Virus record (IMG/VR): IMGVR_UViG_3300045988_038444
Span: 1 to 43,689 of that record
DNA: 43,689 nt
Source of the DNA: a virus
Taxonomy: Duplodnaviria > Heunggongvirae > Uroviricota > Caudoviricetes
Strand: one strand, 5' to 3'
Part shown: positions 16,146 to 43,689 of the stretch, in pieces
How the letters are laid out: the number at the start of each line of letters is the position of its first letter
Position numbering within the stretch: position 1 is the first letter of the stretch
Program-made: the position numbers and the translations under genes
Notes under the pieces: model-generated
Seen by the model: only the letters and a program-made list of their open reading frames with translations
Databases searched by the model: none
What the model was told of the DNA's origin: nothing

Positions 16146-16187
16146 TTTAAAATAATTCTTGACGGATTACACAATGATGTGTAACCT
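16146..16187 (+). promoter_or_regulatory. Early promoter copy P1 (TTTAAAATAATTCTTGACGGATTACAC; -35 TTGACG 16159-16164, 17-nt spacer, -10 TAACCT)
   Basis: One of ten nearly identical copies of this element. Confidence 0.7.
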
Positions 16188-26568: not shown

Positions 26569-26978
26569 TATTCCACATCCTCATAATATGCAGTTCCACC
26601 GATACTATATCCCGTATATTCACCAGTCTGAAACTTTTTCAAAACTTCGTCATCAGTTATCAACGTACCAACAATGACGCCTGTCTGATCCAGTTTATCA
26701 ACCAGTCCAAAACTTGCTGCAATGTCTTCGGTCATCGGGAACGCAAACACAACTTTCCCAACAGGTTGTTGATTATGCATATTATCCATGATGCGCTGAT
26801 CAGAATTCATGAAGTCCAACCATGCTTTCAGAGTGACATCCTCGGGAAATTGCTCGTTGTCCGTGTCTGTGTAAATTTCTAACTGACCTGTCTCCTGATT
26901 ACGTTTTTTACAGATACTACCCCAACCGAATACCATACGTAGTGAGTTGTCAACCTTATTAACTTTTACGTTAATCAC
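26568..26978 (-). CDS. Hypothetical head-module protein (possible prohead protease, XkdF-like?)
   Basis: 136-aa protein between the HE fragment and the scaffold gene; the function call is weak. Confidence 0.3.
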   Translation of the reverse strand: MINVKVNKVDNSLRMVFGWGSICKKRNQETGQLEIYTDTDNEQFPEDVTLKAWLDFMNSDQRIMDNMHNQQPVGKVVFAFPMTEDIAASFGLVDKLDQTGVIVGTLITDDEVLKKFQTGEYTGYSIGGTAYYEDVE

Positions 26979-27385
26979 GGGGATTGTCCTCGTATTGTTT
27001 CAACATGACTAAATTCTAACATTTCGGATGAATAATTGCACTGGTGATACACGCTGTTTACAACGTTACCGAATATCTCAGAAAGATTCTTGATCGGTTC
27101 AACAGCAGTCGTTACTGGTTCAACAGCAGTCGTTACTGGTTCAACAGTAGTCGTTACCGGTTCAACAGTAGTCGTTACCGGTTCAACAGCAGTCGTTACT
27201 GGTTCAACAGCGTCCAGATGTTCAGCGACAACCTGGAAAAACACTGTGTTAGTTTCACGGTCAATAATAACCACTGTGCTGGAACTATCTTCAACAATGC
27301 TGAATGAGTAGTCGTAACGATCACCGTGAATTTTACGGGCGCGACGAATGAATTCGTCTGTAGCAACTCTGATGTTCGGATCCAT
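26975..27385 (-). CDS. Homing-endonuclease-related fragment: one EFIRRARKIHGDRYDYS module + (VEPVTTA)x6 repeat + short C-terminus; no nuclease domain
   Basis: DEFIRRARKIHGDRYDYSFS matches the HE-1 repeat. Start trimmed to ATG 27385 (AAGGG SD). Driven by the minus-strand promoter copy at 27416-27462. Confidence 0.5.
   Translation of the reverse strand: MDPNIRVATDEFIRRARKIHGDRYDYSFSIVEDSSSTVVIIDRETNTVFFQVVAEHLDAVEPVTTAVEPVTTTVEPVTTTVEPVTTAVEPVTTAVEPIKNLSEIFGNVVNSVYHQCNYSSEMLEFSHVETIRGQSP
27096..27215 (-). repeat. Tandem 21-bp repeat (ggttcaacagcagtcgttact, ~5.7 copies) encoding VEPVTTA heptads
   Basis: Copies at 27096, 27117, 27138, 27159 and 27180, plus a partial copy. Confidence 0.85.
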
Positions 27386-27415: not shown

Positions 27416-27462
27416 AGGGTAGTTGTGTCGGTGTAATCCGTCAAGAATTATTTTGCGTATAG
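27416..27462 (-). promoter_or_regulatory. Early-type promoter copy on the MINUS strand (revcomp = CAAAATAATTCTTGACGGATTACACCGACACAACTACCCTGTGG), divergent from P3
   Basis: Near-identical (about 90%) to P3 over ~45 nt including the spacer; -35 CGTCAA at plus 27439-27444; -10 TACCCT. Confidence 0.65.
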
Positions 27463-27526
27463 ATTCATGGGAAGTATGCGACCCCCTATACCTTTTAAAC
27501 CTCTCCTACTTGCAGCAACTTTTACT

Positions 27527-27637
27527 ACTTATACTACTCTTCTATTTATCTATGTTTATTATGTTTTCTATAAAAAGATAACAAAAAGAATAAGATAGAG
27601 AGGGGTTGGTTAAAAAGTAAACATGACGAAATATATG
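27527..27637. repeat. Conserved ~105-bp intergenic element, copy A (core ttctataaaaagataacaaaaagaataagatagagaggggttggttaaaaagtaaacatgacgaaatatatg)
   Basis: About 90% identical to 42607-42713. Confidence 0.8.
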
Positions 27638-27651
27638 AATCTATGATCTAC

Positions 27652-27733
27652 TAATACACGTTCTGTATTAGCCGCAACTCAAAATCATGAAACCTATGTA
27701 GAACTATGTGCAGTTAGTACACGTTCTGTATTA
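27652..27733. promoter_or_regulatory. Two 19-bp palindromic operator-like sites TAATACAcgttcTGTATTA (27652-27670) and TAGTACAcgttcTGTATTA (27715-27733), 63 bp apart, just upstream of P3
   Basis: Perfect 7-bp inverted repeat with a 5-bp spacer; the second copy has one mismatch. Confidence 0.55.
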
Positions 27734-27740
27734 ACTGCAT

Positions 27741-27783
27741 CTTTAAAATAATTCTTGACGGATTACACCGACGCAACTATCTT
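27741..27783 (+). promoter_or_regulatory. Early promoter copy P3 (-35 TTGACG 27755-27760, -10 TATCTT)
   Basis: CTTTAAAATAATTCTTGACGGATTACACCGACGCAACTATCTT. Confidence 0.7.
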
Positions 27784-27814
27784 GTGGTTAACAGGAAGAA
27801 AAAGGAGACATGCA

Positions 27815-27883
27815 ATGATTTACTACATACTGGCTTTCATGATTTTCGCAGCACCTGTGATCGTAGGAATAGTAAGAGGTTAA
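27815..27883 (+). CDS. Possible 22-aa hydrophobic micropeptide (MIYYILAFMIFAAPVIVGIVRG)
   Basis: ATG with GGAGA SD right after P3. Confidence 0.2.
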   Translation: MIYYILAFMIFAAPVIVGIVRG

Positions 27884-27887
27884 CAGT

Positions 27888-32249: not shown

Positions 32250-32494
32250 CGATATTTAAAAACTCAATGGGCGATACTGTCGCGTATCTACCGAAAGTCA
32301 TTATTGCAGATCCATCCTGTGTTGATTACCCACACTGCAAGCAATCTGAAGCGACCTACAACGACCTGTGCGCTGATATTATGCGTGGTTGTGACATCGG
32401 TATTGAACGACTTCAGAAACTGCGGGAGGAATACGAAAAACGGTCTGTTCAGGCAGCAATGGGTTTACCGCCTGTATACGATAATTTAAAATAA
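32246..32494 (+). CDS. Hypothetical protein (82 aa); its last codons (..NLK*) are encoded by the UP-element of promoter P5
   Basis: Track ORF; gataatTTAAAATAAttcttgacgg. Confidence 0.4.
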   Translation: MTIFKNSMGDTVAYLPKVIIADPSCVDYPHCKQSEATYNDLCADIMRGCDIGIERLQKLREEYEKRSVQAAMGLPPVYDNLK

Positions 32495-32526
32495 TTCTTG
32501 ACGGATTACACAAGGACGTGTAACCT
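32487..32526 (+). promoter_or_regulatory. Early promoter copy P5 (-35 TTGACG 32498-32503, ext -10 TGtTAACCT)
   Basis: Identical to P1 over ~35 nt, including the spacer GATTACACAaggacGTGTAACCTACAA. Confidence 0.7.
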
Positions 32527-41697: not shown

Positions 41698-42333
41698 TTA
41701 TTTAAGCGCTTTCTGATACAGTTGCGCGATGTCGTCAATAGTTGCACCTTCAGGAACACTCTGAACCACGTTTCCAACCACACCAGACAATTCCACACGG
41801 TCGATACTGTTCCCGGTGATCTTATCCAGTTGTTCAGACGCTTTTGCACGAGTTTTCGGGTCGAACAGTTCACGTGTCACCAGAATGTATCCACCCAGCA
41901 TGTAACGTTTGTAGCAAACTACGTACTGTTGTAGATGGCTGGGGATATCGTCGGTACTGTTCACCCACAGGTGTTTCGCTTCCGTGTCGTCTTCACCAGG
42001 AACGATGACACGCTGACAATACGGTTCCAGTAATTCTTCAGCCGTGCTTGCCGCTCGTTTCCACCACTCGACACGACTCGTTAACGATTCCCCTACAGAC
42101 TCAAGCGCATGACTTCCCATCGCGTCCAGATAGTTCAACACCTTCGTATTCGACAGGAGGCGATGTGCGGTCGTTGCAGCCGCTGCATCAGACGTGTGAC
42201 CCGGATAAGCCTCTAAAACACATCGCGTATTGCTGAAGCCGTTATTGACACGATCTAACCACAGGTTGGCGAACTTGAGCTGTTCCGGCGACAACTCCAG
42301 AGCAGCCCTTTTAGCCCGGTCTGAAATTTTCAT
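41698..42333 (-). CDS. Terminase small subunit (~211 aa)
   Basis: LSPEQLKFANLWLDRVNNGFSNTRCVLEAYPGHTSDAAAATTAHRLLSNTKVLNYLDAM fits the TerS HTH pattern. Start trimmed to ATG 42333 (GGGAGA SD). Confidence 0.65.
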   Translation of the reverse strand: MKISDRAKRAALELSPEQLKFANLWLDRVNNGFSNTRCVLEAYPGHTSDAAAATTAHRLLSNTKVLNYLDAMGSHALESVGESLTSRVEWWKRAASTAEELLEPYCQRVIVPGEDDTEAKHLWVNSTDDIPSHLQQYVVCYKRYMLGGYILVTRELFDPKTRAKASEQLDKITGNSIDRVELSGVVGNVVQSVPEGATIDDIAQLYQKALK

Positions 42334-42390
42334 AAATTTGTCTCCCATAAATTTTAAATTAGTTTCCCACAGATACCCACGGGTTGTCCA

Positions 42391-42570
42391 CACGCCCTGT
42401 TTTACAGCTAATACAATGTTAATATTAAGTTTACAGTTAGTGCACAATATGCATTAATTTTCGACTATATACATAAATACGTAGCCCATAATCACAATGA
42501 TTTCAAAGACTTGCATAAAAACATAGATTACAATAGGTATCTCCCAGACTTTTATTTTAGCTCTATTTAC
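42391..42570 (+). promoter_or_regulatory. Two copies of TTTACAGCTAATACA (42391-42405, 42556-42570), possibly -35 regions of rightward promoters
   Basis: Exact 15-mer repeat 165 bp apart. The first copy is followed at 16 nt by TATTAA. Confidence 0.3.
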
Positions 42571-42606
42571 AGCTAATACACTATATGCACTATCTCTATC
42601 TTTCTA

Positions 42607-42713
42607 TACTACTTCTTCTTTATATCTATGTTTTCTATGTTATCTATAAAAAGATAATAAAAAGAATAAGATAGAGAAGGGTCGGTTAAAAAATAAACAT
42701 GACGAAATCTATG
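42607..42713. repeat. Conserved ~105-bp intergenic element, copy B
   Basis: About 90% identical to 27527-27637 (..tctataaaaagataataaaaagaataagatagagaagggtcggttaaaaaataaacatgacgaaatctatg). Confidence 0.8.
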
Positions 42714-42728
42714 TTAAGTATAACTTTA

Positions 42729-42905
42729 ATGCACAACATGCACTATATAATTCACAACGTGCATTAGCTGTGCCAACATAGATACACAACGTGCACTAAC
42801 AGTTAATACACAACGTGCATCTTGCACTAACTGCTAAAGCACAACATGCACTAAGTGTAAATACACTAACATATAAAGCACGTCTTGCACTAGCTGCTAA
42901 TGCAC
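42729..42905. repeat. Iteron/operator array: at least 5 imperfect palindromes nGCAC-AAC-(G/A)TGCA (cores at ~42730, 42751, 42783, 42807 and 42838) plus related GCACGTCTTGCACTAGCTGC and ATGCACGTT, spaced 24-32 bp
   Basis: Direct reading; the sites share CACAAC(G/A)TGCA(C/T)T and several are followed by CTAAC/CTAAG. Confidence 0.6.
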
Positions 42906-42944
42906 GTTATGATTTATCCGTGGTCAAACAAGAAGGGTATGATA

Positions 42945-43689
42945 ATGAAAAAGAACCTTTTAGACGAATTAATAGATTTAAAAGGCGGGGTACAAAACGC
43001 TGTTGAATACCTTAATCGTCGAGGTGTTAAGGTGACTGTTGGTCGTTACAACCAATGGTTAAGCGGTAGGTTTCATCCTAAATATGAAACGATCAGTATT
43101 ATTCTTGAAGAGATTACTGACTTCACACTGTCACCCTTGCCAGTACAACATTCTGACGAAAACATTGTTCTTAAACACACAATACCGGTTACCGAACTGC
43201 GTCAGAAATTACCACACAGACGTTTTGCTAATAACTACTGGCAACGTGTCAGATACGTTGATTCACAGATCCTGGAAGCTGTTCACGGTCACGACGTGTG
43301 GACACGGTTTGAGGCGATGTGTGGTAATTTTGAATGTGCAAGATATGTGCTACGCAGAAATTTAAACGAACACACAATTACTGACAGTTGGATTCAAAAT
43401 GGTTTGCGCCGGGGATGGATCCCGGAATGTGTAAACGTAATGGTCGATTTGCTTGAAAAATACGAAGGCACCGGGACACCGTTTAACGTAATGGTTTGTG
43501 AACCACCTGTATCACGAGTGGAACCACCTGTATCACGAGTGGAAGCACCTGTATCACGAGTGGAACCACCTGTATCACGAGTGGAAGCACCTGTAGCACG
43601 AGTTGAAGCACCTGTAGCACGATTTGAACCGCCTGTAGTCGATGTCAGCGATTTGAAGGAGAAAATCAGACTGTATGCGTTATCACACA
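42945..43689 (+). CDS. Partial CDS (N-terminal 248 aa; no stop inside the window): HTH-like N-terminal region, then a (VEPPVSR/VEAPVAR)n repeat linker; probably continues in the partial ORF at 1..249
   Basis: ATG 42945; the frame is open to the window end; MKKNLLDELIDLKGGVQNAVEYLNRRGVKVTVGRYNQWLSGRF... Confidence 0.5.
   Translation, partial: MKKNLLDELIDLKGGVQNAVEYLNRRGVKVTVGRYNQWLSGRFHPKYETISIILEEITDFTLSPLPVQHSDENIVLKHTIPVTELRQKLPHRRFANNYWQRVRYVDSQILEAVHGHDVWTRFEAMCGNFECARYVLRRNLNEHTITDSWIQNGLRRGWIPECVNVMVDLLEKYEGTGTPFNVMVCEPPVSRVEPPVSRVEAPVSRVEPPVSRVEAPVARVEAPVARFEPPVVDVSDLKEKIRLYALSH
43500..43640 (+). repeat. Tandem 21-bp repeat (gaaccacctgtatcacgagtg, ~6.7 copies with drift) inside coding sequence
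   Basis: Copies at 43500, 43521, 43542, 43563, 43584 and 43605, plus a partial copy. Confidence 0.85.

Follow-up and report, generated by a model that had tools for sequence, protein, structure and literature searches.

A predicted DNA-binding protein and its cognate palindromic site array, origin-like in layout, beside the small terminase gene of 9NA-like phages

Comparative analysis of sequences indicates that the N-terminal domain of a protein conserved among 9NA-like phages and the array of palindromic sites adjoining its gene are a cognate pair, origin-like in layout and with a function that is predicted here. In our best reading, to which we assign a probability of roughly 0.4, the protein would bind specific sites, regulate its own gene and organise an origin-like complex. 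The analysis establishes the sites, the AT-rich elements, the fold and the exchange of the array together with the N-terminal domain; from these we infer binding to the palindromes, autoregulation and, most weakly, a replication role of the locus.

Background

The 9NA-like phages comprise Nonanavirus and Sashavirus together with relatives infecting Klebsiella; they are used in biocontrol and include members of the BASEL collection. To our knowledge, neither the replication origin nor the control of gene expression has been established for this group. The DNA analysed here, a stretch of 43,689 nucleotides referred to throughout as the window, had drawn attention for a possible initiator locus within it, around a gene that starts at position 42945. 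The sequence features on which this original prediction was built are real, and two of the inferences drawn from them are wrong.

The window as a genome fragment

At 43.7 kb, the window covers only part of a Sashavirus/Nonanavirus genome of about 58 kb. It aligns to Bas82 from 38187 to 1 and then from 58508 to 52350, with about 14.1 kb unrepresented; the rebuilt Bas82 genome measures 58.5 kb. A closed circle as the state of the window was rejected, and the proposed circular join of 43689 to 1 is false: the 42945 gene of the relatives ends 24 codons past the window end, and comparison with the full-length proteins of Bas82 and Sergei confirms that only these last 24 codons are missing. In the Sergei record a terminator is annotated just 3' of the homologous gene. 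Positions 1–249 belong to another gene and encode the C-terminus of a Gp2.5-like SSB, with a match to the family phrog_7011; the 42945 gene hence neither continues in 1–105 nor has its C-terminus encoded at 106–249, as had been supposed. The genome had also been described as having no helicase or primase. The relatives encode both, namely an SF2 helicase and a primase-polymerase/D5-type SF3 helicase of the P4 type, in the segment that is absent from the window, and the notion that a host helicase is loaded since the phage has none is an artefact of this truncation. In genome scanning, a truncated window can thus give rise to false inferences of circular joins and of missing genes.

Two loci with palindromic sites and an AT-rich element

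The features of the two loci are as follows, beginning with the one between the small terminase gene (terS) and the 42945 gene (region B) and continuing with a second one at 27.6 kb (region A).

41698–42333, minus strand: small terminase (TerS) gene, 211 aa (phrog_51, E 8e-11)
42334–42403, minus strand: TerS leader and putative promoter region, conserved across lineages
42404–42432: site S1, left half only, on the terS side
42433–42461: site S2, on the terS side; S1/S2 half-site scores 12/13 and 13/13
42569–42597: site S3 (half-sites scoring 13/13 and 10/13), immediately to the left of the AT-rich element
42605–42713, plus strand: AT-rich conserved element, copy B, 109 bp, candidate DNA-unwinding element
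42722–42921: proximal array S4–S10, seven overlapping or adjacent 29-bp palindromes with the core TGCAC-AAC-GTGCA, starting at 42722, 42743, 42775, 42799, 42830, 42869 and 42893, each +28 bp
42885–42913, plus strand: putative sigma-70 promoter of the 42945 gene (TTGCAC, 17 nt, TATGAT), read from the sequence
27427–27783: outward-facing predicted sigma-70 promoters, of sequence TTGACGGATTACACCGAC, bracketing copy A and sites A1/A2
27427–27444, minus strand: left promoter of region A, TTGACGGATTACACCGAC
27530–27637, plus strand: AT-rich conserved element, copy A, 90% identical to copy B and in the same orientation
27647–27675: site A1, 29-bp palindrome of the same family as the S sites, core TACAC-GTT-CTGTA
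27710–27738: site A2, 29-bp palindrome of the same family as the S sites, core TACAC-GTT-CTGTA
27755–27772, plus strand: right promoter of region A, TTGACGGATTACACCGAC; its -10 hexamer ends at 27783

The palindromic sites are strongly over-represented. With up to one mismatch, CACAACGTGCA occurs six times in 42732–42911, as against 1.58 matches expected in the whole window, and the observed window total of eight was reached in none of 100 shuffles. Similarly, the 13-nt half-site ACAGYTARTRCAC has 17 matches in 42334–42944, compared with 0.9 in shuffles of that region, and these half-sites pair into the ten 29-bp palindromic sites S1–S10. The original prediction of at least five palindromic sites upstream of the gene is thereby borne out, with seven in 42722–42921 and ten overall, far above the shuffles. 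The centres of S4–S10 (42736, 42757, 42789, 42813, 42844, 42883 and 42907) are irregularly spaced, at intervals of 21, 32, 24, 31, 39 and 24 bp, and these sites are palindromes rather than regularly phased iterons repeated in one orientation; the palindrome is the classical form of operators bound by HTH dimers. The sites are confined to the two loci, in the window as well as in the whole Bas82 genome. The position equivalent to S3 is occupied by a site in 9NA and the Klebsiella phages too, each with its own motif. Matches to the DnaA box TTWTNCACA number ten in the window, none of them in 42334–42944 or 27416–27887.

A conserved element had been predicted upstream of the gene, and it does exist, but at 42605–42713 rather than at the start of the interval. 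Copy B consists of a pyrimidine-rich stretch, three tandem 9-mers of the ATCTATGTT type (42623–42649) and a purine/A-rich stretch, and has sites to either side (S3; S4–S10). It is the least stable duplex segment of the window at both 60 and 100 bp (z ~4.1–4.3), with copy A the second least stable, and among 200-bp windows of the Bas82 genome the two copies hold the lowest (copy B) and third-lowest GC content. The three 9-mers are conserved in all lineages, their core being kept in 9NA, the Klebsiella phages and two further lineages, L012 and L013. An Rfam scan of 42200–43100 returned only chance-level miRNA/snoRNA matches, and single-strand DNA folding of the two element copies gave no convincing hairpin (z = -1.85 and -0.58). 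A small ORF within the element was discarded as a candidate, having 22 codons in copy B versus 7 in copy A in a by-eye translation and thus not being conserved. Outward-facing promoters of the region-A type are also found at four other genome junctions, there without the AT-rich element.

The order of terS, repeat-rich intergenic region and divergent gene is kept in every homologue found. The terS gene forms a transcription unit by itself, pointing away from the locus and isolated 4 kb from TerL; its product is annotated in Sergei and Bas82 and is 83–100% identical across all relatives. That the locus adjoins terS, and not the replication genes, is an observation counting against an origin. 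We would place the terS promoter in the leader at 42334–42403, where TATCTGTGG (42367–42375) is similar to the -10 sequences of the promoters in region A; a -35 consensus is not present in this stretch. Two sites lie across the putative promoter of the 42945 gene: the -35 hexamer falls within S9, and S10 takes in the spacer together with the -10 hexamer. Consensus promoter scans of region B yielded nothing above shuffle expectation, TTGCAC-17-TATGAT itself falling below the threshold. Comparable promoters, TTGACT/TTGACC, occur in L013 and KP13-27, where a site coincides with the -10 hexamer or follows it.

Domain architecture of the protein

The 42945 gene, which is present in every member of the 9NA-like group examined, encodes a protein of phrog_25538 (profile E 1.2e-144, residues 1–248; the sole PHROGs match), with homologues that include gp91 of Sergei and gp84 of 9NA. 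The family profile matches only 13 cluster representatives among 1.84 billion proteins, and its members measure 230–300 aa. The gene can be divided as follows.

42945–43124, plus strand: N-terminal domain (aa 1–60), four helices
43170–43499, plus strand: conserved core, with an invariant LPHRRF segment and a helical central domain
43500–43637, plus strand: in-frame tandem repeat of period 21, 6.6 copies, 93% matches (TRF)
43638–43689, plus strand: start of the conserved C-terminal two-helix domain of ~45 aa, cut by the window end

The HTH-like domain that had been proposed at the N-terminus was recognised in structure comparison as an XRE-type HTH of the lambda-repressor-like class, and residues 1–60 are probably both such a domain and the determinant of specificity. 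This transcription-regulator fold is the only one recognisable in the protein, and all structural neighbours are transcription regulators or antitoxins, with no replication initiator among them. A BFVD fold search retrieved solely family members and small HTH proteins, and a whole-protein Foldseek search with a first, low-confidence model gave local HTH matches only. Profile searches of Pfam (E up to 1), NCBIfam and PDB with the protein produced no match, HTH_3/XRE profiles of Pfam-A and NCBIfam included, and neither in sequence nor in fold did it match Rep, O (Phage_rep_O) or any other known initiator. The palindromic, irregular sites, the regulator-type fold and the lack of DnaA boxes at the locus are further observations that count against an origin.

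The LPHRRF columns are invariant in both alignments (A6 and A7), and the core is modelled in the 9NA homologue with a pLDDT of 83–92. Its central domain may be an internal duplicate of the N-terminal one, as suggested by an hhalign match in the same register that is weak (E 0.0064); the Klebsiella-phage homologues have an extra domain copy. The C-terminal helices span residues 195–209 and 220–231 of the 9NA model. The two thirds of the protein that do not bind DNA are far better conserved than the HTH domain. A distant homologue, P0020, resembles the N-terminal domain only, and weakly (E 1.3e-4); it is encoded upstream of a parA/korB-like operon.

The six or more 21-bp tandem repeats coding for heptads, as originally described, were recovered by TRF and translation as 6.6 in-frame copies, which encode an (E-P/A-P-V-S/A-R-V)n linker of EPPVSRV-type heptads. 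Their number varies from 4 in Bas82 to ~10 in Sergei, with none in 9NA, SP-062 and the Klebsiella homologues, and similar Pro-rich in-frame repeats occur in two more genes of the window, the SSB gene and the ORF at 26975–27385. They share no motif with the upstream palindromic sites. Judged by these comparisons, the 21-bp repeats are linkers and not iterons.

Exchange of a specificity cassette among lineages

The evidence for a cognate pair comes chiefly from BDX09P1, in which exactly one segment of the window has been replaced, with sharp boundaries:

42709–43153, plus strand: exchangeable specificity cassette, comprising the proximal array, the N-terminal domain and a linker

Within this segment the window and BDX09P1 are 22–64% identical, and the proximal array of BDX09P1 is an unrelated set of motifs. 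The left flank (41710–42708) is 92–100% identical, save for patches of 64–86% at 42160–42309 and 42410–42609, and the right flank (43204–43503) is ~98% identical. More generally, each of six lineages (the window type, BDX09P1, 9NA, the Klebsiella phages, L012 and L013) has its own N-terminal domain and, in the same position, its own repeated motif. The array and the N-terminal domain are exchanged together, and therefore represent a cognate pair. TerS has two N-terminal alleles, each common to phages with three different site motifs, and these alleles do not co-vary with the six motifs.

In region A, 9NA carries 9NA-type sites at the same place. BDX09P1 keeps the window-type motif both there and in S1–S2 despite its changed N-terminal domain; this retention of the old motif counts against an origin. 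These sites would accordingly be dispensable, read by another part of the protein, or bound by a different factor.

The primase-helicase of the relatives was also considered as the determinant of specificity and rejected. Bas82 and BDX09P1 have the same enzyme (100% identity), and between Bas82 and 9NA identity is 88–100% except at aa 681–760 (~70%); the primase-helicase does not track the motif of the proximal array, and because it is near-invariant between phages with different motifs it is an unlikely source of specificity. The surroundings of the primase gene yielded no further cluster resembling iterons, and an AT-rich stretch after this gene, entertained as an origin, is coding DNA without repeats. 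GC/AT skew along the rebuilt Bas82 genome follows the coding strand only and is uninformative on the origin. In the distant Morganella phage Henu15, arrays of sites flank an AT-rich core upstream of terS in an analogous layout; Gp31 of that phage was dismissed as a homologue, the hhalign match (E 0.05 over 19 residues) not being significant.

Proposed function and its alternatives

In the reading that we favour, the XRE-type HTH at the N-terminus, probably as a dimer, would recognise the 29-bp palindromes upstream of its own gene, and occupation of S9 and S10 would cover the promoter, resulting in autoregulation. A multi-site complex, with S3 on one side and S4–S10 on the other, would assemble around the 109-bp AT-rich element, between two divergent promoters. 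This complex would be the phage replication origin and the bound protein its organiser, whose conserved core and C-terminal domain, the latter on a Pro-rich linker of variable length, could bring the conserved P4-type primase-helicase of the phage to the element in its melted state. At 27530–27738, the second copy and its two sites may be an auxiliary or secondary origin. Speaking for this reading are the confinement of the sites to the two loci, the joint exchange of array and N-terminal domain, the placing of sites on either side of the least stable DNA, the lack of a further iteron-like cluster by the primase gene and the analogous layout in Henu15.

The main rival, a distinct if tentative possibility, is that the protein is purely a transcription regulator, i.e. 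an XRE-family repressor or activator for which the palindromes are operators, without any role in replication. Under the protein's control would be the two divergent single-gene units, terS and its own gene, possibly along with the region-A promoters, so that it would set when TerS is supplied and when packaging begins; the AT-rich element would serve as promoter, UP-element or bending DNA that aids looping between S1–S3 and S4–S10. The palindromic form of the sites and the overlap of S9/S10 with the gene's own putative promoter agree with this, as do the position of S1–S2 just upstream of the terS leader, where a promoter without a -35 consensus may need an activator, the isolation of terS as a single-gene unit needing its own control, and the pairing of terS with the regulator gene in all relatives. 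However, ten sites over 520 bp are many for an operator, and the lack of sites at the other late-gene blocks means that the protein would not be a general late activator. A regulator also leaves unexplained why two loci hold a 109-bp element at 90% identity that is also preserved among lineages, why it lies between outward-facing promoters of a kind that do without it at other junctions, and why the non-DNA-binding two thirds of the protein are better conserved than the HTH domain. Some other role of a DNA-bound array, such as that of a centromere-like or partition site, a decoy for nucleoid proteins or a determinant of competition during co-infection, with no direct part in replication or terS control, is improbable. 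Determinants of incompatibility or immunity typically carry specificity cassettes that diversify, P0020 lies upstream of a parA/korB-like operon and the phage encodes a ParB-like protein; but the homology of P0020 is weak, nothing links the ParB-like gene to the sites, and 9NA is a virulent phage with no known plasmid state (PMC4153490).

We regard it as quite improbable that the repeats belong to the pac site, with the protein acting beside TerS as an accessory factor in its recognition. The locus is directly upstream of terS, several curated records start the genome in this intergenic region (window position ~42608), and 9NA-like phages use pac-initiated headful packaging (PMC4153490). Yet the conserved TerS, with each of its two N-terminal alleles accompanied by three site motifs, argues against it, the mosaic patch at 42160–42309 in the 5' coding region of terS is a better candidate for a TerS/pac cassette, and the locus at 27.6 kb has no packaging context. 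Mapping of pac was reportedly carried out by Zeng et al. in 2019; no pac coordinates were found in the literature citing that study. The explanation originally offered, a lambda-O-like initiator whose coding repeats double as ori iterons and which loads a host helicase at a circularly joined locus, is scarcely credible. The variable copy number of the repeats would suit it, but the join is false, the phage family has its own helicase and primase-helicase, and no match to Phage_rep_O or any other initiator was obtained; as to the analogy with lambda O, it fails because the in-gene repeats, present in 0 to ~10 copies, are unrelated to the upstream sites, are missing altogether from the 9NA, SP-062 and Klebsiella homologues, and have Pro-rich counterparts in the SSB gene and ORF 26975–27385.

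A more specific form of the origin-organiser proposal, which we consider unlikely as a whole, holds that the protein is an organiser of an unrecognised kind with tandem XRE-like domains, conferring private replication specificities on co-infecting 9NA-like phages. Its variable N-terminal domain would read the inner half-site and its conserved part the outer, TTACAG-type part; nucleation would occur on both sides of the unwinding element, with repression of its own promoter, and the SF3 primase-helicase would be delivered via the tethered C-terminus.

The locus provides a first and testable functional hypothesis for a core gene of the 9NA-like group, and the natural cassette swap of BDX09P1 supplies a ready control of specificity. 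Were it an origin, it would add an HTH-based type of initiator working with an SF3 primase-helicase, and offer a handle for building replicons or blocking replication; a role as terS switch would instead mean that the initiation of packaging has a transcriptional control of its own.

Comparison with known systems

Iteron replicons contain an AT-rich unwinding element with short tandem repeats, an array of initiator sites, the initiator gene and sites that overlap its promoter (PMC4980987). The likeness to plasmid Rep/iteron systems that had been pointed out therefore stands for the layout of AT-rich element, site array and HTH gene, and fails for homology or fold of a Rep. In P1 oriR/RepA, F RepE, RK2 TrfA and pSC101 the succession of element, array and gene is alike, as is the cognate specificity of protein and sites, and the overlap of S9 and S10 with a putative promoter may be comparable; a candidate AT-rich unwinding element is present here as 42605–42713 with its three tandem 9-mers. 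In contrast, the winged-helix WH1-WH2 architecture and Rep homology are both lacking in the 42945 protein, 17–22-bp iterons in the same orientation are replaced by irregularly spaced 29-bp palindromes, the expected DnaA boxes are absent from both loci, and the bearer, a virulent phage, has an SF3 primase-helicase of its own.

The iterons of phage lambda are dyad-symmetric, and palindromic sites beside an AT-rich tract are common to ori-lambda and the present locus. Lambda O also has a variable DNA-binding N-terminal part, a conserved remainder and a linker of variable length, as does the protein described here. In lambda, however, the iterons and AT-rich tract lie inside the initiator gene (PMC7466680), whereas here the sites and the element are upstream and the in-gene repeats are an unrelated linker; the 42945 protein has no similarity to O in sequence or fold, and no P-like helicase loader was seen in this case. 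With XRE/Cro-CI-type regulators (TP901-1 CI, Cro, Aca proteins and HigA-type antitoxins) the protein has the HTH fold in common, but it lacks an HTH_3/XRE sequence match, is larger (230–300 aa), possesses a unique core (LPHRRF and the second helical domain) and a tethered C-terminus, is accompanied by at least ten sites flanking a duplicated AT-rich element, and belongs to a virulent phage without a lysogeny module.

Three further systems offer analogies. The satellite phage P4 has a primase/SF3-helicase and two cis loci, ori and crr, and its helicase itself binds the origin repeats; a P4-type primase-helicase and two loci would likewise characterise the present family, in which, unlike in P4, the sites differ between phages and the primase-helicase hardly does. 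In the Bacillus phage SPP1, oriL lies inside gene 38, oriL and oriR share initiator boxes and an AT-rich region, and G38P, a replisome organiser, brings in the phage helicase; the two distant loci may be comparable to those described here, with no detectable homology between the proteins. Papillomavirus E2 binds palindromes as a dimer and has a flexible hinge of variable length; besides regulating transcription, it brings an SF3 helicase to an origin that is AT-rich. E2 and the 42945 protein have no homology, and the resemblance is one of analogy only; under the more specific organiser proposal, the phage protein and its primase-helicase would be a functional counterpart, in a bacterial virus, of the E2/E1 pair, acting at a two-locus origin.

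The intergenic array and its AT-rich element

The palindromic sites reported upstream of the gene starting at 42945 (+ strand, divergent from terS) form a genuine array. With at most 1 mismatch allowed, the core CACAACGTGCA is found 6 times in 42732-42911, against 1.58 occurrences expected over the whole 43.7 kb. The sites are longer than this core: inverted copies of a 13-nt half-site, ACAGYTARTRCAC, around a 3-bp centre make a 29-bp palindrome. Half-site matches in the 611-bp terS/42945-gene intergenic region (region B) number 17, as against 0.9 in shuffles, and ten sites (S1-S10) were counted there.

Palindromic sites
42404-42597; S1-S3, left of the AT-rich element
42722-42921; S4-S10 (proximal array), right of the AT-rich element; centres 21-39 bp apart
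27647-27675 and 27710-27738; two full sites at a second locus (region A)

The conserved element originally noted near the gene also exists, but at 42605-42713 rather than where it had been placed; its partner at 27530-27637 lies in the same orientation (109 bp, 90% identity). By nearest-neighbour stability these two copies rank first and second for instability among the window's 60- and 100-bp segments (z about 4), and the lowest and third-lowest GC among 200-bp windows of the related phage Bas82 both fall in them. The element is strand-asymmetric, running from a pyrimidine-rich into a purine-rich part, and contains three tandem 9-mers of the ATCTATGTT/TATCTATAC type, kept in every lineage examined. 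Across the complete genome of Bas82, the site motif and the 9-mer element are both confined to the region-A and region-B loci. The element matched no RNA family, folding of both copies gave no convincing hairpin, and no DnaA box was found at either locus.

Arrays and protein as a probable cognate pair

Bas82, Sergei, 9NA, two Klebsiella phages (KP13-27 and phi_270) and two metagenomic contigs all share the order terS (-), a 410-610-bp intergenic region and a homologue of the 42945 gene (+). The motif repeated between element and gene differs by lineage.

Array motif by lineage
Window: TGCAC-AAC-GTGCA
9NA: ATAACAC-NNN-GTGTTAT
Klebsiella phages: TTTCAGCTTACCAG
Comparison locus L012: CATATAAC...TTGGTT
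Comparison locus L013: TACACATCTGGTA
BDX09P1: CTATGACAGGATTA-type

The related phage BDX09P1 is the decisive case for a cognate protein-site pair. It is 92-100% identical to the window over 41710-42708 (except for 64-86% patches at 42160-42309 and 42410-42609), only 22-64% identical over 42709-43153, and again about 98% identical from about 43200 as far as the linker repeats. The exchange covers precisely the proximal array, N-terminal domain and linker; the N-terminal domains of the two proteins are 43% identical and the remainder 99%. For TerS, identity is 83-100% throughout, and there are only two N-terminal alleles, either of which is common to phages with three different array motifs; the arrays therefore track the 42945-gene protein and not TerS. 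This cassette swap, read from sequence comparison, is solid new evidence and makes the locus directly testable.

One complication for this reading is that BDX09P1 retains sites of the window type both at S1-S2 and in region A, unlike 9NA, whose region A carries 9NA-type sites. A recent swap may have left the retained sites behind as relics; alternatively, recognition may go through the outer portion of the half-site, which is conserved (TTACAG-type, in most lineages), or some other factor may bind there.

Within terS, codons ~9-58 (42160-42309) form a mosaic patch in which identity to BDX09P1 is 64-84%, as compared with 94-100% in the flanks. The patch corresponds to the two TerS N-terminal alleles common to several lineages, and may be a DNA-binding or pac specificity cassette.

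The protein and its linker

The protein belongs to phrog_25538, a tiny family without assigned function (13 cluster representatives among 1.84 billion proteins), and Pfam, NCBIfam and PDB sequence searches gave no match. For the 9NA homologue, AlphaFold (mean pLDDT 80) predicts an N-terminal domain of four helices (residues ~3-60), then a disordered linker, a core made of helices (~92-183) and a C-terminal pair of helices. An hhalign match in the same register (E 0.0064) hints that the central domain may have arisen by duplication of the N-terminal one. Klebsiella-phage homologues, about 300 aa in total, have one extra tandem copy of this conserved central domain (KP13-27, L005 2998-3924; P0011).

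The 21-bp tandem repeats within the gene were confirmed at 43500-43637 (TRF, 6.6 copies, 93% matches); they are in frame and encode E-P/A-P-V-S/A-R-V heptads. The heptad linker has 4 copies in Bas82, about 7 in the window and about 10 in Sergei, and is absent from the 9NA, SP-062 and Klebsiella homologues. Two other in-frame Pro-rich repeats occur in the window.

Other Pro-rich coding repeats
SSB gene; 30 bp x 3.5 copies (TRF), encoding PVAAPTPAAA
27096-27211, in ORF 26975-27385 (-); 21 bp x 5.5 copies, encoding VEPVTTA heptads

Given this lineage-specific copy number and these further repeats, the coding repeats are linker expansions typical of the genome, and their reading as iterons is rejected. 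The VEPVTTA repeat resembles the VEPPVSR linker in style, and its ORF lies directly left of region A.

Relatives and the missing segment

Over positions 42300-43689 the window shares 93-97% identity with phages of the Sashavirus/Nonanavirus group, 53-58 kb in size, among them KarinMuster_Bas82, Sergei, Sasha and Solent. When both ends and the whole window were mapped onto the rebuilt Bas82 genome, its counterpart was Bas82 38187->1 and 58508->52350, leaving ~14.1 kb (Bas82 38188-52349) absent. In relatives this segment encodes an exonuclease, an SF2 helicase, a ParB-like gene and a 784-aa primase-polymerase/D5_N/SF3-helicase protein, annotated in 9NA as a 'P4 family primase'. The supposed lack of a helicase or primase is thus a truncation artefact.

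Nor does the 42945 gene continue across a circular join into 1-105, since 1-249 encodes the C-terminus of a Gp2.5-like SSB (phrog_7011, E 6e-10). Judging from the Bas82 (251 aa) and Sergei (293 aa) homologues, the gene ends 24 codons past the window end, and a terminator is annotated directly 3' of it in the Sergei record. The window starts inside the 30-bp SSB repeat (about 10 copies in Bas82 against 3.5 here) and ends 52 bp past the 21-bp repeat; a 12-mer common to both, GCACCTGTAGCA, invites a false circular join.

Promoters

On either side of the region-A element and its two sites lies a copy, facing outward, of the strong promoter that is standard in this genome, AAATAATTCTTGACGGATTACAC. 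Four more divergent junctions, those ahead of TerL, portal, ORF 18025 and the tape-measure block, have this cassette but no such element; the element is therefore not needed for promoter function.

Promoter cassettes
16150-16181, 27746-27777, 32489-32520 (+); conserved bidirectional cassette, AAATAATTCTTGACGGATTACAC
27422-27453 (-); the same
Reverse-complement copies; upstream of TerL (~38100), portal (~34700), ORF 18025 (~18100) and ORF 16101 (~16170)

The cassette sits where + strand small-gene blocks meet - strand structural-gene blocks, and leftward promoters resemble TTGTCG/CTGTCA-16-TAAACT with CCCGTG ahead. The first gene 3' of the rightward region-A promoter is a small unlisted ORF (27815-27883, +) with a good RBS, encoding a 22-aa hydrophobic peptide, MIYYILAFMIFAAPVIVGIVRG, and conserved in BDX09P1.

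For the 42945 gene, TTGCAC (42885-42890), a 17-nt spacer and TATGAT (42908-42913) make a plausible promoter candidate, 25-30 nt upstream of the RBS. S9 lies over its -35 hexamer and S10 over the spacer and -10 hexamer; in L013 and KP13-27 the promoters are clearer (TTGACT/TTGACC), and a site lies at or past the -10 hexamer. From these overlaps we infer that autoregulation is likely.

Function of the locus

The observation at this locus is real once corrected: an initiator-like architecture stands in part, whereas the lambda-O version, with coding-repeat iterons, a circular join and no phage helicase, is refuted in these three particulars, and origin function is putative. The protein very probably binds the palindromes via its N-terminal HTH domain and regulates its own gene. 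Beyond this we favour, at a probability of about 0.4, a role as origin organiser, in which the tethered C-terminal domain would be suited to recruiting a partner. This preference arises because many sites flank a conserved, minimally stable element between divergent promoters, the second locus is a duplicate, the non-DNA-binding part with its tethered C-terminal domain is strongly conserved, the SF3 primase-helicase is nearly invariant while the sites vary, and no other repeat cluster was found near the replication genes.

The main competitor, somewhat less probable, is a pure XRE-type regulator of terS and the 42945 gene. Such a role agrees with the fold, with the palindromic sites and with terS being an isolated unit; it leaves the duplicated AT-rich element unexplained. 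An accessory role at pac is improbable, as the arrays do not co-vary with TerS and the mosaic patch in terS is a better candidate for packaging specificity.

Distant relatives and known origins

Proteus and Morganella relatives (TerS about 32-33% identical) also have a long, repeat-rich region upstream of terS. In Morganella phage Henu15 (L020 3100-3970) GTTGCA arrays in opposite orientation lie either side of an AT-rich core, with three TTAACC...GGTTAA palindromes, a symmetric layout that looks origin-like; its divergent 194-aa gene has no significant homology to phrog_25538. Proteus phage PmiS-Isfahan (KY742649.2, flagged UNVERIFIED_ORG; L019 2616-3982) has no 42945-gene homologue at this locus. 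Upstream of terS, and separated from it by about 1.1 kb of repeat-rich DNA, an 80-aa ORF resembling the SSB C-terminus lies there beside 21-bp x 3 repeats; a deletion or mis-join at repeats, like the join in the original prediction, may account for this arrangement. A metagenomic protein, P0020 (86 aa; L014 709-3339, SRR30938156), is weakly similar to the N-terminal domain alone, and its gene lies upstream of parA-like ATPase and ParB/KorB-like genes, a plasmid-like context.

By membership tests the locus falls outside the iteron replicons: the protein does not have a winged-helix fold, the sites are not arranged as direct repeats and DnaA boxes are absent. The origin in ori-lambda lies inside a gene, whereas the candidate origin here does not. 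The layout of the locus nevertheless parallels that of iteron replicons (PMC4980987) and, loosely, that of ori-lambda (PMC7466680).
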